From the NCBI GenBank assembly GCA_965656495.1, contig CBFHKU010000009.1:18098-82097 (forward strand): 64,000 bases of DNA, in the 5' to 3' direction. Below are positions 36,001 through 42,000 of this stretch, piece after piece. Every line of letters starts with the position of its first letter. The first letter of the stretch is position 1. This DNA comes from Coraliomargaritaceae bacterium (GTDB taxonomy: Bacteria > Verrucomicrobiota > Verrucomicrobiia > Opitutales > Coraliomargaritaceae). Made by a program: the position numbers.

Positions 36001-39000
36001 ACAGATGGGTGCTATGCAAGTTGAAGCGCGTTTTCAATGCAGGCTCTCAATTCATTGTGGTCATGCGCGACCTTGAGGTCCGGGCGTTCCTGAATCAAAC
36101 GTTCAGGGGGGCAAAAGAGCGCCTTATGGTCGGCGGTTTCTATCATACTGAGGTCATTGTAGGAATCACCTGCCGCGAAGGTTTCAAAATTCAGGCCCTT
36201 AAAAGCTTCAACCGCCTTCCGTTTGTGGTCGGGCAAGCGGAGGCGATAGTCTGCGATGCGACCGTCCGTGGCGATTTCGAGTTCGTGGCAGAAAAGGGTG
36301 GGGTTCCCAAGTTTGGCCATGAGCGGTCCTGCAAATTGGCTAAAGGTGTCCGAAAGAATGACGAGCCGAGTTTGTGCCGAGACCCAGTTTACGAATTCGA
36401 CCGCGCCGGGTAAGGGTTCCAGCGTGCCAATGACCGCTTCGATATCCTTTAGCTTGAAGCCTTCTTTGTCCAAAATATCGAGGCGATAGCGCATGAGGGT
36501 GTCATAGCAGGGCTCATCGCGAGTGGTACGTTTGAGCGCCTCGATTCCTGTGGTTTCTGCAAAGGCAATCCAGATTTCAGGGATGAGCACTCCTTCTAAG
36601 TCAAGGCAAACAATATGCATGACTTCTAAAGCGTTGGAAAGTGGGCTTGAGTCAATCTCAATCCAGAGTGCGGACACTCAGTGGCGGGAAATTCATGAGG
36701 ATGGCATCCACCACGGCCTGCGCCTGTATGGGGCTCAAGGCATTGCGCTCCAAGCGGCGGGTATGCACCCCGCGCCAGACCAGTTGGCCATTTTGCGTAT
36801 CAATCACATCGATCACGAGGGTTCCTTCTTCATATTTGTCGATGAAGAGGCGCCCATAGCTGTAATCCCCGAAATACGGTTCGCGTCCAAATGGTGCCGG
36901 CCCATGACCTAGGTCATGAACTTCGGTGCGATCTTTAGTAACGGTATGGAAGTTGATACGGAAGTCAGCTGGTTTACTGCGTGCGTAACCTTTTGCCTCA
37001 AGGCTATTCCCGATGGCGTTTTGCACGCGCCGATCCACCAGCGGACTGAGGGCAATCGTGCCATAACCCGCTCGCTCTTCGCGCGTATCAATTTGAAAGG
37101 TGGTGTATGCCTTAATGCGATCGATTTGAGCGCGGTCAAAATCCACCGCTACGGGACTCTGGCAACCTGCGATTAGTAACACTGCTCCCAGTGGAAGCAT
37201 TTTGAATAAATGGGTCTTCATGTTGAATAATATAAGTACTCAATCAAAAATGGCAAATCTTTGCTGATCCGGTGATTAATTTTCCTCTTTGGGCGCATTT
37301 CCTTCAAAAGCAGGGCGTGTGACTGTTTCAGACGCATTGATATCCTTGCGGCTCAGTACGGTGTATAGGGTCAGGCCAAGAATCCTGAAGTCCAAGAAGA
37401 GAGATTTTTTTTCAACATACCAGAGGTCGAGTTCAAATTGGCGATCCCAGGTCAGGCCATTGCGCCCATTAACCTGAGCCCAGCCGGTGATCCCCGGACG
37501 CACTTCATGTCTGCGCGCCTGCTCTTTGGAATAACGTGGCAAATATTCGGTTGGAAGGGGTCGTGGGCCAACGAGGCTCATCTCTCCGCGCAGGACATTC
37601 CAGAGTTCAGGGAGTTCGTCGAGGCTGGTGGAGCGCAGAAATCGTCCCCACCCGGTGGTACGCGCGGCATCGCTGCCGGAACCCGCCTGCATACTGCGGA
37701 ATTTCACGATTTCGAAGGGCAGCCCCCCGCGACCCGCGCGGATTTGTCGAAAGAAAAGCGGCCGTCCCATTATGATATATTGCAGGATGCAAAGGGTCGT
37801 CAAGAGGGGTGCGAGCAGGATGAGCCCCAGTGAACTGGCGATGATGTCGATGGCGCGCTTCATGGATATTTTGAATGAAATTAGGCAATCTCGCCGGATT
37901 TGGCTATTAATATTTGGTTTTCATTTGATCCTGATTTATTTTGTGCATATCGTAAGATCCAATTTAACCTATTACACTATTATGATACTCGACGCGGCAG
38001 CACGCAACTTTTCGCCTTTTAGTCTTACCCGCTTGCTCACCACCTGCTTTGGTGCGGGCAATGGTGAGAGAGCCTGTATTCTGATTGATCTCCCCGATCC
38101 ACATGACATCAAGGATTTCAAATTCCTCGAAGACGAGACCCTCTCCATCCAAAATTACGGGCACGAAGTTTTCTACAAGGGTTTCAAGGAAGGCGCCCTC
38201 GAGGTCATGAATTGGACCGGAGGTGAAATTTTCGCTTATCAGGAAACGGGTGGCAGCAATCTCGACATGGAGGATCTCTGTTGCGATCCCAGCGGCAAAG
38301 AATTGAGTCTCGATCGGGACATATACCCGAATTACGACATCATCTTAACCGTTTCCACTTTTTCTGCGACTGCCCCCCTGACCGCCAAATGCAAAGAATT
38401 CGGCTTCCGTGGCGCAACCTTGCACGGGCTCAATCAAATCATTCTCGATACCGGGTTGGCGGTTGATTACGATCTCGTAAGTGAAGAAGCGGAGCGTTTG
38501 CGCCTTGGTTTGACTCAGGCAGATCGTTTTGAAATCGACTTTCAGGTTGAGGGCGAAGTCTATACCCTGCTCCTTCACACCAACGGTCAAGAGGCCCAAA
38601 AGAGCCATGGTTTATGTCCTCCGGGCAAACCGGACGTCGCCAATCTTCCTGCAGGCGAAGTTTACTTTGTCCCTGAAAGCGCGGAGGGTGTCTTCCCTTT
38701 TAAATACAGTGAAGAAACCATAGGTCTTTTGCACGTGAAGGATGGCACCATCTACAAATCGCAGTTCGTCTATGGCGACTATGCGGAAATTGAAGCGCAT
38801 AACCAGCGCCTTGCGGATGATCCCATGGTGGGAGCGATTGGCGAACTCGGCTTTGGCACGCAGGTCTTACCCTTCTCAGGGCGCGATATTCAGGACGAGA
38901 AAATTCTGGGCACGATTCATGTCGCCACCGGGCGGGATGATCACCTCGGTGGAAAAATAACCCCGGATCTTTTCAAGGAGCATAAGAATGCCTCGCATGA

Positions 39001-42000
39001 CGACGTCCTTTACGCGCCGCACAAGACCCCTGAAATTCGTCTCCCCGAGGCGCGAATGATTAAAGACGGAAAATCCACGGTCCTCATTCGCAACTACAAG
39101 CCTGCGGAGTTTATGGTTGCCTGCCTGGAAAACGAAACTCCGGTTGAGGTTTAACCGATGCCGGAGAATCCCTACGAGACAGATGCGCTCTTGCAGCAGT
39201 ATCTCGTATTTCACTACGCGAATGAGGCGAAACAATTTCCCTATCCTTTTGGGGCTTCGGATGCGTTGGGTTTTCCAGTTCGCTGTGTCACGGAGGGGCT
39301 GGATTTTGAATCAATAAAACCGGAAGCCCGGGCCCTGGATTTGGGCTGTGCGGTTGGGGGCAGCAGTTTCGAACTCGCGCGCCACGCTGCGGAGGTAATT
39401 GGGATTGATTACTCCGAGGCTTTCATTGCTGCGGCAAGGCAGTTGCAGTCCACCGGGAAAGTTTCGGCATCACGTTTGGACGAGGGATCTTCGCAAACCC
39501 GACTGGCATTGGAAATCGACGCCGCTATCGATCGCACCAAATTATCGTTTGAAACCGGGGATGCGCAGGATTTGCGTGCCGACCTCGGGCAATTTGATGT
39601 GGTGCTGGCATGTAATCTTATTTGTCGCTTGCCGGAACCGATGCGTTTGTTGAGTCGTTTGCCGGAATTGGTGCGCCCCGGCGGGCAGCTTTTTATTACG
39701 ACTCCCTTTACCTGGCTGGAAGCATACACGCCCCGGGCGAATTGGCTCGGGGAGGGGGTAGCCGATTCCTTTGCCGGTTTGCGCGCTTCACTGGAGCCCA
39801 TGTTTACACTGGAGCGTTCTTGGGATATGCCCTTCCTAATACGCGAGCATGCGCGCAAATTCCAATATAGCATCGCGCAGGCAAGCCGGTGGCGACGTTC
39901 CGATACGAGGCCGTAGTTATGCGCTTGATTGCCCTTATGCTTCCAGGATGCCGGAGCTCTTGAGCAGACTCCCAATGTAGGGAATCAATTGCTTTTTACG
40001 GCTCACGATCCCGGAAAGGAAGTATACATTGTTTTTGCCGCGCTGAGGGTAATTGATCCAATCCAGAACCTGTTGTTCACCGCTCACAACGAGCAGGGAG
40101 TCCTGTGAGTTGACGTCGGTAATCAAGAGAAAGCTCAAGCCCAGTCCCTCGCTTTTGCGGTGCGCTTTCAAGGCCGCGTCCAAGGCATCGCTGTGGGCGT
40201 TGAAATTATCAAAGCCCAGTTCCTCGATCTGCGAGACGCTGTAACGGAAGTGGTTTTCAACGTATTCCTTGCAGTCGGAGCGGATGACATCTTCAGGGCT
40301 GGAATTAAGGATGACCGACCCGGATGAGAAAATGAGTTCAGCCAAGGTCTTGCTCTCAATGCCGGCAATCGGGCTCAACCATTCCAGCAATTCGCCTTCC
40401 AGCGGTGTGGTCGTCGGACTATTGAGATGCAGGGTATCCGATATAATTCCGGACATCATCGCTCCGGCAATAGGGCGTGAAGGGGTGAGTCCACTTTTGC
40501 GAAAGAGGTCAGCTACAATAGAACAGGTCGAACCCACCGGGCGGTTGATGAAGAGGATCGGTTTTTGCGTGGGCAAGTTGCCGAGTTTGTGGTGATCCAG
40601 GATTTCGGTAATCTGTACCTTGTCGGCGCCGTTAACGGCTTGGTTCAATTCATTGTGATCGACCAGAGCGATCCGCGTTTTGCTCGGGCGCAGAATGTCG
40701 CTCTTGGAGAAAACTCCAAGCAATTGATTGCTGTCGTTTGTGACCATGTAGAGCGGGTCATTGAGCGAGGCAATGCGGTGCTTGACCGATTGAATGCTGT
40801 CCTCCGCTGAGAAACATTTCACTTTTTTCTCAAAGAGACTATCGATATGAGTGGCGGTTCGAATGATCCAGGAGGTGGAGGCAGAATCATAGGGACTGAT
40901 AATGAGGGAAACGCCCTTATCTTTTGCAAGTTGTAGGACTTCAGGGTCCACCTCGAGTCCGCCGGTGATGACGAGGAGGCGGACGCCTTTCTCGATGCAC
41001 AGTTCCTGGATGTCACGTCGGTCACCCACCACAATGATGGATTGCTCGGCGGGCATGTCGCTTTCTCTGCGGTAATTATTGAAGGATTTTATGTGCATCG
41101 CCCCGACACGTACGTAGAGTTCCTGCACGTCCAAAGGCGAAACAAGGTTTAGCGCCTCGGCGTTCAGTGAGCGCACAATGGAGTCCATATTGGTTTTTAC
41201 CCGGCGCATGTCCTTGGATGAGCGGGGCTTTGGCACAAAAAATTCCCCAAGCTGGAAGAAGCTGATGACTCCGAGCAGTCGGTCCGCGGTATCGGTAACC
41301 GGGAGCGCCCGCACGTCGTATTTATCGATCAATTCGAGCGCTTCCGCACAGGTGCTTTGTGGAGTCACCTTGTGAAGCGTGCGGCTCATGATTGCCTCGA
41401 TGCGCGGTGTGACATCGCCCAGGAAGACCGGAACCGGCAATTGGAAATGCTCGAGAATCGCGTCAATACGCGGGTTGGTGTTCCCACAACGCGCCGCGAC
41501 ATAATTTTTCTCGCCCATCGCATGCTTGTAGGCGGAGTATGCCAGTGCAGAGCAGATGGCATCTGCGTCAGGGTTTTTGTGCCCCAGGACGTAGATTGGA
41601 CTCTCTTTTTCCATTATTTTTATTAATCAATGGTTTGAGTGATATTTATACAAACCAATAAATTCTGAAAGTTGATATAAAGAGGAAGGCCGGACTGCAA
41701 GAGCCCGGCCTTCGTGTTAAACTTGGATAGGCCGAGTGGCTCTAGTCAGCGCGAACGATGTCGTTGCTGCTGTGAACATCGAGAATGTTGCTGGTGGGTT
41801 GCCCGTTGGTGGGGTCGACGAGTTGCCCGTCTTCGCCCTCAAGGTCATTGTAGAATTGAACGTGCCCATCGAGGTAGGCAATGTGCCCGCCCAAGCCCCA
41901 GGGGGAATCCTTTGGCCAGGTTCCTGAACTGGTGAGTCCGCGGGTCCAGGTCAAAGGGGTGGTGGTTGCAGGGTCATTGCCTCCGGCAGCGAGTGCGAAG

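Follow-up and report, generated by a model that had tools for sequence, protein, structure and literature searches.

Two adjacent genes of a Coraliomargaritaceae bacterium, located in a window of 64,000 nucleotides (the whole stretch of DNA analysed here), encode P0002, a methyltransferase related to those of ovothiol and ovoselenol biosynthesis, and P0001, a partner that by its sequence represents a new subfamily within the M29/NicX fold. In our genome sample this partner is obligately paired with such a methyltransferase, and the evidence supports the view that the two proteins form one functional unit. As a tentative explanation, which we regard as quite possible, we propose that the pair is a self-contained module for an ovothiol-A-type thiol, N-pi-methyl-5-thiohistidine, and would operate without enzymes of the OvoA, EgtB or OvsA (NHISS) families.

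The initial annotation of this locus had described two reading frames of 390 and 252 codons, and both were found as stated (Table 1), with 3 nt between the stop of P0001 and the start of P0002. A sugar-transferase gene (37276-37863) runs divergently from the pair, and the gene downstream of P0002 (39935-41614), which codes for a DHH/CBS/DRTGG protein, lies on the opposite strand to the pair; since both flanking genes are on the opposite strand, P0001 and P0002 constitute a two-gene unit. A consensus scan of the region upstream of the pair found no sigma-70-like site beyond chance, and a palindrome that is kept 5' of the pair in relatives is not present there. The genes around the pair are otherwise housekeeping genes.

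Table 1. Features of the P0001-P0002 locus (positions within the window).
Feature	Position	Strand	Description
Intergenic region 5' of the pair	37864..37981	+	118 nt, AT-rich; presumed promoter region
P0001 gene	37982..39154	+	390 aa; putative new subfamily of the M29/NicX fold
P0002 gene	39158..39916	+	252 aa; SAM-dependent methyltransferase (class I), OvoA-Cterm/OvoM/OvsM family

P0002 matches the TIGR04345 profile (ovoA_Cterm) over its full length (positions 1-242 of 242) with 190.7 bits, confirming the earlier claim that it exceeds the curated cut-off of 170; its Pfam matches are Methyltransf_11, 12, 25 and 31. The nearest solved structures are those of OvsM (9bxh, 186.9 bits), OvoM (9bxl, 155.8 bits) and OvoA (8khq, 130.9 bits). 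OvsM and OvoM, which N-methylate 5-selenohistidine and 5-thiohistidine, respectively, are stand-alone proteins equal in length to P0002, align with it from end to end (E 4.7e-54 and 1.4e-44) and share with it the SAM-binding core as well as the motifs of the C-terminal, non-Rossmann lid. This supports the membership of P0002 in the ovothiol/ovoselenol N-pi-methyltransferase family, and we predict that it is an N-pi-methyltransferase for 5-thiohistidine. Its stand-alone form, previously taken for an oddity, is none, as OvoM and OvsM are already named and structurally solved enzymes. In a phylogenetic tree, the pair-linked enzymes group in a single clade with the C-terminus of a fused protein described below and with a stand-alone copy from genome G294, which encodes OvoA and no P0001; the inclusion of this copy suggests that the pair-type enzyme probably works on 5-thiohistidine made by OvoA. 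Long branches set the clade apart from the OvoA domains, and in seven of the 50 pair-bearing genomes the TIGR04345 score of the methyltransferase falls below the curated cut-off (141-169.6 bits), so that a drift in substrate is possible.

The association between the two genes proved stronger than previously claimed. Among 301 genomes of the phylum Verrucomicrobia, P0001 orthologues (E <= 1.6e-129) occur in 50, spanning at least 13 families, and all 50 also encode a TIGR04345-type methyltransferase (E <= 1e-25). None of them passes TIGR04344, the profile of the N-terminal half of OvoA. Elsewhere in the sample, the methyltransferase domain is found in eight further genomes, exactly those eight that have a full OvoA by this profile. 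The domain therefore accompanies either a P0001-like protein or the sulfoxide-synthase half of OvoA, never both, which is the pattern expected from an 'OvoA with a swapped head', as the pair had been called; with only eight OvoA genomes and about 1.3 overlaps expected by chance, however, the zero overlap is not significant. This exclusivity, like the TPMT and PatB contrasts given below, is further weakened because the genomes are related and not independent. Five genomes have only paralogues of P0001 with 30-32% identity, and none of these encodes a TIGR04345-type methyltransferase. A cultured species, Coraliomargarita akajimensis, is among the carriers of the pair. At the level of individual loci, the methyltransferase is present in 55 of 79 genome loci, within 300 nt and on the same strand in 48 of the 79, and in 50 of 80 metagenome loci, at distances of -15 to 286 nt; 19 loci of each set have room downstream, yet no methyltransferase there. 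The adjacency persists at 40-60% protein identity. Finally, the 650-aa fusion reported before was recovered as P0124, a single metagenomic sequence whose N-terminal part (residues 15-394) shares 50% identity with P0001 and whose C-terminal part (residues 406-646) matches TIGR04345 with 215 bits.

In agreement with the initial annotation, P0001 matches no family in NCBIfam and Pfam scans, PF02073 included, and its closest solved structure, by fold comparison, is NicX; a PDB sequence search, profile search included, yielded no match. The assignment as a NicX-type iron enzyme, by contrast, is not supported. The 2,5-dihydroxypyridine dioxygenases NicX/Hpo (7cn3, 7cup) are 13% identical to P0001 and coordinate iron by His, Ser and His-x-Asp, whereas P0001 has Glu288 in place of NicX His265, His313 at or near the position of NicX Ser302, and, besides His339-x-Asp341, two further glutamates of a two-metal site (Glu226 and Glu306); the nic-cluster context is not present either. 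Judged from sequence, these putative ligands (E226, E288, E306, H313, H339, D341), which include the motifs D305-E306-K307 and His339-x-Asp341, are those with which M29 peptidases and CgnB bind two metals; in CgnB, the six-ligand two-zinc site shows the identical order E, E, E, H, H, D (PMC10070186). CgnB and CgnE (6zsv, 6zsu) are M29-derived proteins of crocagin biosynthesis that have no peptidase activity and likewise occur together with an N-methyltransferase (PMC10070186). Unlike the M29 aminopeptidases (AmpS 1zjc, AmpT 2ayi, PepS 4ics), which are about 30 residues longer, P0001 has no PF02073 match, carries His321 where the M29 motif has its catalytic Tyr, a His found in every member aligned, and contains an inserted loop with C212. 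Of 85 orthologues, 84 have this cysteine and the remaining one has Val, while in our own reading of the alignment a Cys occurs in the equivalent stretch of only 4 of 14 methyltransferase-less paralogues; C212 is thus specific to the P0001 subfamily. A separate, canonical M29 aminopeptidase is encoded in the same genome.

The genome, which is 99.4% complete, had been said to have no N-terminal part of OvoA, and this is upheld: the best TIGR04344 match reaches 23.4 bits against a cut-off of 400 and falls in the FGE domain of a TPR protein of 586 aa. The best match for EgtB scores 19.7 bits and none for SelD lies above its cut-off, so that none of these three other sources of a methyltransferase substrate was found in this genome. 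The partners of OvsM are OvsA, SenB and SenC (PMC11030361); the present genome contains neither NHISS nor SelD, and P0002 instead has an M29-like protein as its fixed partner. OvoA, which acts with OvoB, likewise combines a head with an N-pi-methyltransferase, fused in some chains, but the head of our pair is not a DinB/FGE iron enzyme, and a linked OvoB/PatB lyase was not found. The PatB-family C-S lyase noted earlier is indeed encoded in the genome (contig C4, 175830-176954; 435.8 bits), unlinked to the pair. PatB is found in 45 of the 50 pair-bearing genomes and not in the other five, which are 99-100% complete; four of the eight OvoA genomes have it within 1 kb of ovoA, but it adjoins the pair at no locus among the 79 from genomes and the 80 from metagenomes. 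The lack of linkage and the five genomes speak against an OvoA-like cysteine-adduct route, which would need a beta-lyase, although with PatB in 45 genomes a lyase-dependent route is still conceivable. Of the 'swapped head', the two-gene unit, the methyltransferase family and the exclusive pattern are supported, while the NicX iron site and the cysteine-adduct/lyase route are not. No dedicated lyase or sulfur-transfer gene is linked to the pair among the loci examined. In 5 of 79 loci, and also in genome G240, a gene of the TPMT family lies after that of the methyltransferase, and TPMT-type S-methyltransferases are enriched in pair-bearing genomes (35 of 50, vs 18 of 251 others), which hints at a thiol product.

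In the module that we propose, the identity of the product is one that we infer from the methyltransferase family alone: P0002 would use SAM to methylate N-pi of the imidazole ring in 5-thiohistidine, in the manner of OvoM, OvsM and the C-terminal domain of OvoA. P0001, as suggested by co-occurrence, adjacency and fusion, would be its obligate upstream partner and supply the 5-thiohistidine. How it might do so is a matter of speculation; we deem a direct insertion of sulfur at histidine C5 the most likely mechanism, in which the metal centre would hold and activate the imidazole and the sulfur would arrive as a C212 persulfide or from a small sulfur donor, making a cysteine adduct and a dedicated beta-lyase unnecessary. 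A comparable logic, though no relation in sequence or fold, is seen in EanB, the sulfurtransferase of anaerobic ergothioneine synthesis, a rhodanese-fold protein without a metal centre that moves persulfide sulfur directly to C2 of hercynine, with neither a sulfoxide nor a lyase. An oxidative, O2-dependent chemistry at a di-iron-loaded site is an equally open variant. Linkage further hints that the thiol may, in many lineages, be the substrate of a TPMT-type S-methyltransferase. Sulfur insertion is disfavoured by the match between the P0001 ligands and those of hydrolytic M29 aminopeptidases, and we know of no member of the M29/NicX fold that forms C-S bonds.

This ligand set is what makes a hydrolase or salvage role a serious rival, if on balance a somewhat unlikely one: as a two-metal amidohydrolase or aminopeptidase, P0001 would release 5-thiohistidine, or a closely related compound, that is bound in a peptide or N-acyl conjugate (an imported thiohistidine dipeptide or N-acetyl-5-thiohistidine, or a protected endogenous intermediate), and P0002 would convert it to ovothiol A. 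Bacteria do produce such dipeptides and N-acetyl-5-thiohistidine (PMC13674229, PMC12631010), and OvsM requires a free, already substituted amino acid (PMC11030361). This role would also fit the missing linkage to lyase or sulfur-transfer genes and the transporter genes 3' of the methyltransferase at a few loci (EamA in L073 and presumably in L080, where an ORF has equal coordinates; an SBP_bac_3 protein and permease in L079), but no transporter is consistently linked among the loci examined. Furthermore, the catalytic Tyr is replaced throughout, NicX, Hpo and CgnB have no aminopeptidase activity despite their equal fold (PMC3831237, PMC10070186), and a canonical M29 aminopeptidase is already available. 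The pair is also maintained across the phylum in lineages from the sea, fresh water, soil and peat, and identity from one genus to another reaches 83-88%, which fits core biosynthesis better than the scavenging of a rare compound.

The long-branched clade and the sub-cut-off scores could instead mean that the methyltransferase has drifted and that the module makes another N-methylated imidazole or amine, or modifies a peptide; in the latter case P0001, like CgnB, would bind or process the peptide in a metal-dependent manner, and P0002 would N-methylate it. AshA indeed has an OvoA-like methyltransferase domain without detectable function (PMC13674229). We nevertheless consider drift unlikely: P0002 is closer to OvsM than the OvoA domain is to it, the lid motifs are shared, a pair-type copy accompanies OvoA in G294, the enriched TPMT points to a thiol, and no conserved precursor peptide, dioxygenase or other RiPP gene was found near the pair. 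More doubtful still is the version of the initial annotation, in which P0001, as a NicX-like mononuclear Fe(II) oxygenase, joins histidine and cysteine to a sulfoxide and the unlinked PatB performs the OvoB step. PatB is widespread in pair-bearing genomes, and haem-copper oxidases occur in four of five carriers checked, both Kiritimatiellia included, but neither the ligands of P0001, with the first His replaced, His313 at or within two residues of the Ser ligand and both extra glutamates kept, nor the distribution of PatB agree with it. That an ordinary aminopeptidase and an unrelated methyltransferase merely share an operon, as the housekeeping neighbourhood might suggest, is very improbable in view of the co-occurrence across families, the adjacency held between divergent proteins and the fused form.

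Our literature search found no paper on a pair of this type. The two-gene unit is widespread in Verrucomicrobia and, since the genomes that carry it lack the usual sulfur-inserting enzyme, may represent a novel route to an ovothiol-like antioxidant. Both genes are seen in marine metatranscriptome assemblies, evidence that is weak because DNA carry-over is possible, and a contig from an RNA library spans positions 39260-40038, including part of P0002.

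P0001, the protein of M29/NicX-type fold, and P0002, the methyltransferase of OvoA C-terminal type, are encoded by neighboring genes (see table). Since the upstream neighbor (a Bac_transf sugar transferase gene) and the downstream one (encoding a DHH/CBS/DRTGG protein) both lie on the opposite strand, the two form a free-standing two-gene unit. The genome is 2.06 Mb in size and 99.4% complete, and similarity searches find the nearest named relatives of P0001 in Coraliomargarita and other Opitutales. Among carriers in culture are Coraliomargarita akajimensis (source of P0025) and Thalassobacterium maritimum (L036). 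Contigs of two marine RNA libraries, in which DNA carry-over is possible, cover both genes in related strains with 92-99% identity; none of them spans the P0001-P0002 junction.

Coordinates of the gene pair and of other features discussed in the text (G, sampled genome, with G000 being that of the window; C, contig; L, extracted locus)
Feature	Location	Strand	Description
P0001	window 37982-39154	+	390 aa
P0002	window 39158-39916	+	252 aa; starts 3 nt past the P0001 stop
TPR/FGE protein	window 25495-27255	+	586 aa; weak TPR match under the Pfam threshold, C-terminal FGE-sulfatase domain, no DinB
Canonical M29 aminopeptidase	G000 C7:59064-60047 (L083:1495-2613)		372 aa; PF02073, 159.8 bits
TPMT-family gene	G000 C2:214224-214736		unlinked to the pair
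TPMT-family gene	G240 C31:1728-2228		follows the methyltransferase
Full OvoA and stand-alone pair-type methyltransferase	G294 C53:3060-3815 (L091); G294 C47 (L092)		methyltransferase 227.9 bits; no P0001
OvoA in two overlapping frames	G243 C1:2889965-2892704 (L093:2915-4537, 4452-5726)		540 + 424 aa
OvoA and PatB	G104 C10:932103-935326		PatB 15-900 nt downstream (all four OvoA and PatB rows)
OvoA and PatB	G239 C35:10505-13734
OvoA and PatB	G286 C48:45644-49019
OvoA and PatB	G293 C386
PLP enzyme, Cys/Met family	L076:6404-7933	+	509 aa; directly upstream of a P0001 orthologue; best match BesB-like, 375.5 bits, under cut-off

P0002 covers the ovoA_Cterm model TIGR04345 completely (profile positions 1-242 of 242; 190.7 bits, cut-off 170), and its Pfam matches (Methyltransf_11, 12, 25 and 31) represent the class I SAM-binding core. 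Its best match among solved structures is OvsM, a 5-selenohistidine N-methyltransferase (9bxh; 186.9 bits, E 4.7e-54, query residues 1-248), followed by OvoM, a 5-thiohistidine N-methyltransferase (9bxl; 155.8 bits, E 1.4e-44, residues 3-247), with full-length OvoA behind both (8khq; 130.9 bits). As OvsM and OvoM are already known as stand-alone enzymes, the stand-alone form of P0002, highlighted in the initial annotation, is not unusual. OvsM is described as methylating 5-selenohistidine and not histidine (PMC11030361). We predict that P0002 methylates 5-thiohistidine, presumably by the SAM-dependent N-pi-methylation that characterizes its family.

A tree was computed from 56 methyltransferase sequences, with pair-type ORFs admitted if they had 236-275 aa and lay on the plus strand; OvoM and OvsM sequences are not among the 56. 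The seven verrucomicrobial methyltransferase domains that are part of OvoA form one clade in it, set apart by a 100/100 split. All pair-linked methyltransferases fall opposite this clade, together with the C-terminus of the natural fusion protein P0124 and a stand-alone copy from genome G294. Because the latter genome encodes a full OvoA and no P0001, its sequences suggest that pair-type methyltransferases are able to act on 5-thiohistidine made by OvoA. The methyltransferase domain of this OvoA is strongly divergent (28% identity to P0002, long branch), and methylation may have passed from it to the stand-alone copy.

No enzyme that would usually make 5-thio- or 5-selenohistidine was found in the genome of the window, in searches for the OvoA N-terminal half, EgtB, a DinB-FGE combination and SelD. 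In agreement with the initial annotation, the best match to the ovoA_Nterm model TIGR04344 has 23.4 bits (cut-off 400); the best EgtB match (TIGR03440) has 19.7 bits, and no DinB domain was seen in the only two proteins with an FGE domain. These results rule out a hidden OvoA or EgtB; the source of the weak ovoA_Nterm match is the TPR/FGE protein in the table, which is not a member of the OvoA/EgtB/OvsA iron enzyme family (NHISS). A selenium (ovoselenol) pathway is ruled out for this genome as well, the best match to selenophosphate synthetase (SelD/SenC, TIGR00476) reaching 36 bits against a cut-off of 125. The NHISS partner that would be expected for a member of the OvoA-Cterm/OvoM/OvsM family, whether OvsA or the OvoA N-terminal half, was thus not found in this genome. 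Searches with two further models, for glutathione synthetase (TIGR01380) and the E. coli-type glutamate-cysteine ligase (PF04262), found neither in this genome.

Both genes recur together. A P0002 relative is present at 55 of the 79 genome loci with a P0001 relative: at 48 of them it lies no more than 300 nt away in the same orientation, at three it is 0.7-1.7 kb off, and at four (L005, L012, L016 and L017) it lies approximately 6.1-6.4 kb downstream, again in the same orientation, with an RND efflux insert of about 6.1 kb in between. ORFs scanned in this type of insert encode an OEP outer-membrane efflux protein (L017) and an AcrB-type RND pump (related locus L018). At 19 of the 79 loci, at least 900 nt of downstream sequence hold no methyltransferase, and at the other five this stretch is too short to judge. 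Among 80 metagenome loci, the methyltransferase is found at -15 to 286 nt in 50 and is missing in 19 with room downstream, the further 11 being too short; as the underlying scan was aimed at the Paraburkholderia-like protein P0128 and gave loci of Verrucomicrobia type, these figures describe linkage within the phylum. At equal distances, P0001 is better conserved than P0002 (83-92% versus 57-74% identity).

In a sample of 301 genomes of the phylum, in which related genomes are not independent, 50 encode a P0001 orthologue (52-100% identity), and each of these 50 also encodes a TIGR04345-type methyltransferase at E <= 1e-25. This co-occurrence covers at least 13 families and, together with the spacing of the genes, bears out the earlier observation that they travel together. 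TIGR04344 is passed by none of the 50, one of which (G249) has an EgtB-like match of 126 bits. Eight further genomes contain the methyltransferase domain, and these are precisely the eight that pass TIGR04344, mostly with OvoA frames of 705-738 aa; five genomes with only distant P0001 paralogues (30-32% identity) have no such methyltransferase. The mutual exclusivity of the pair and OvoA is not significant on its own, as chance alone predicts about 1.3 overlaps, against none observed. The OvoA of G243, found in two overlapping frames, is either frameshifted or truly split.

A direct fusion of P0001 and P0002 is found in P0124, a single metagenomic sequence of 650 aa, whose C-terminal part matches TIGR04345 with 215 bits. 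The only other longer P0001 relative, P0281 (787 aa), was rejected as a fusion; its N-terminal half is of low complexity and has no Pfam match, and we read it as an over-extended ORF.

P0001 itself matches no Pfam or NCBIfam family, and neither sequence nor profile searches yield a match in the PDB. Its structural model, of high confidence (pLDDT 95.8), displays both the two-domain fold of M29 peptidases and the overall fold of NicX. Compared with solved structures, it is closest to NicX (26.3; 308), followed by the M29 aminopeptidases PepS, AmpT and AmpS (18.2-18.4; 294-299) and the crocagin proteins CgnE (13.0; 253) and CgnB (11.5; 250). The genome also encodes a canonical M29 aminopeptidase, which makes P0001 an extra, specialized relative of this family. 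P0001 does not match the Peptidase_M29 model PF02073, on which only distant relatives reach 27-41.5 bits, but a profile-profile alignment (hhalign) with the canonical enzyme has a probability of 97.15. In it, E226 falls on the Glu of N-x-P-x-G-E, E288 on that of I-G-E, D305-E306-K307 on F-D-E-K and H313 on the motif His; H339-x-D341 corresponds to the M29 H-x-D. Of the catalytic motif that defines M29 peptidases, E-E-H-Y-H-D (PMC7023490), P0001 thus keeps E226, E288, H313, H339 and D341, while the position of the Tyr is occupied by H321, a His shared by 84 of the 85 orthologues and by the paralogues.

The putative ligands of P0001 run in the order known from CgnB, in which two zinc ions are held by E, E, E, H, H and D (PMC10070186). 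A member of the CgnB/CgnE class of peptide-binding proteins would combine such a six-ligand two-zinc site with a RiPP cluster that includes a CgnC dioxygenase and a precursor peptide. By contrast, NicX binds a single Fe(II) via His265, Ser302, His318 and Asp320, with the family motif H-X52-H-x-D (PMC7910607). In P0001, the position of the first of these His ligands is taken by E288 (IGELGFG, versus MSHVGWG in Hpo; PMC3831237, peptide context of mutagenesis primers), and the Ser ligand falls at or next to H313; this mapping combines hhalign, spacing and primer-encoded peptides (PMC3831237, PMC7910607) and is one of alignments, not of superposed coordinates. At this level, the NicX ligand set (His-X52-His-x-Asp plus Ser) does not appear to be present in P0001. 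As the fold matches NicX and the ligands match M29 and CgnB, P0001 would have a NicX-like shape with a peptidase- or CgnB-like putative two-metal site, so that its initial placement next to NicX holds for the fold of the model, but not for the metal ligands. These putative ligands are 97.6-100% conserved in 85 orthologues, all of which share S128, R143, Y86, K207, Y228, Q304 and D305. Moreover, 84 of the 85 retain C212, which lies in a loop just ahead of the first ligand. In our reading of the alignment of P0001 relatives (A1), a Cys occurs in this stretch in only four of the 14 paralogues without the methyltransferase.

A C-S lyase of the PatB family (OvoB type), noted previously, is indeed encoded in the genome, but on a different contig, and it never adjoins the pair. 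In the sample, it occurs in 135 of 301 genomes, namely 45 of the 50 with the pair and 90 of the 251 others; five pair genomes of 99-100% completeness gave no match. In four of the eight OvoA genomes, PatB lies within 1 kb of ovoA, and these four represent the classical ovoA-ovoB pair, in contrast to the lyase-free arrangement of P0001 and P0002.

A gene for a TPMT-family S-methyltransferase follows the pair methyltransferase at five of 79 loci (L055, L057, L063, L072 and L077) and, as a sixth adjacent case, in G240. It is present in 35 of the 50 pair genomes versus 18 of the 251 others, G294 among them. Enzymes of this family methylate aromatic thiols and selenium compounds; that TPMT tracks the pair therefore hints at a thiol as the product. 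A SUI1/YciH-like gene separates TPMT from the methyltransferase in L055 and L057 and follows the methyltransferase in L075; apart from TPMT (five loci) and SUI1 (three loci), no conserved third gene was found at the pair loci. A PLP enzyme gene directly next to the M29-like gene is seen at L076 alone, and there the 8 kb downstream hold no methyltransferase.

Taken together, we infer that P0001 supplies 5-thiohistidine to P0002. To our knowledge, every established route to ovothiol, ovoselenol, ergothioneine or selenoneine inserts sulfur or selenium via an NHISS iron enzyme, in agreement with the literature, or, anaerobically, via EanB or MES. Next to the NHISS iron enzymes and the sulfurtransferases of rhodanese or metallopterin type, P0001 might constitute a third, unrelated class of thiohistidine-forming enzymes, an M29-fold two-metal enzyme that would thiolate C5 of histidine directly via Cys212, with neither sulfoxide nor lyase, and that with an OvoM-type methyltransferase would yield an ovothiol-type low-molecular-weight thiol in Verrucomicrobiota and Kiritimatiellota; we advance this full scheme tentatively and consider it rather doubtful as a whole. 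Among speculative mechanisms, we favor direct thiolation at the two-metal site, possibly with C212 as the sulfur carrier, because the pair has no linked lyase and this cysteine is orthologue-specific. An alternative in which P0001 is a hydrolase or salvage enzyme is well alive, since its peptidase-type site appears intact in sequence; bacteria are now known to make both thiohistidine dipeptides and N-acetyl-5-thiohistidine (PMC13674229, PMC12631010). The distribution of haem-copper oxidases, present in four of five carrier genomes checked, including both Kiritimatiellia, argues neither for nor against O2-dependent chemistry.

We know of no described enzyme for the salvage of thiohistidine conjugates, and as a hydrolase P0001 would reveal such a route. 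If P0001 is instead the source of thiohistidine, its peptidase scaffold would host a new catalyst for C-S bond formation; this would account for 'orphan' ovoA_Cterm annotations and point to the low-molecular-weight thiol of these bacteria. In either case, an OvoM-type methyltransferase is here tied to a family-less metalloenzyme in genomes without NHISS, an arrangement that extends over an abundant marine, freshwater and soil phylum. A full-text literature search, which did not reach the OvsM/OvoM structure paper, returned no link between M29-like proteins and thiohistidines; a survey of bacterial ovothiol genes counted full OvoA sequences only (PMC8433421).

A scan for promoter and terminator consensus sequences at the pair gave nothing above chance. 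Most close relatives (L005-L036) have a palindrome, AGTCAAACCTAGCTTTGACAG (GTCAAA-N6-TTTGAC), some 50-90 nt ahead of the P0001 orthologue, whose right half includes a -35-like TTGACA and which looks like a putative operator overlapping the promoter; it is absent from window positions 37864-37981, from the window's own genus and from locus L004.

The neighbors of methyltransferase-less paralogues (seven loci) share no common theme, with NUDIX at two loci of one genus and otherwise unrelated genes. Distant paralogues with 29-30% identity to P0001 include fusions with membrane segments, namely with DUF4396 (P0253 and P0257, 661-666 aa) and with PLDc_N (P0258, 646 aa); these fusions have no bearing on the pair. 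Two others, P0208 and P0251, start with signal-peptide-like stretches, and these sequences suggest an extracytoplasmic or membrane-bound branch of the P0001 family.
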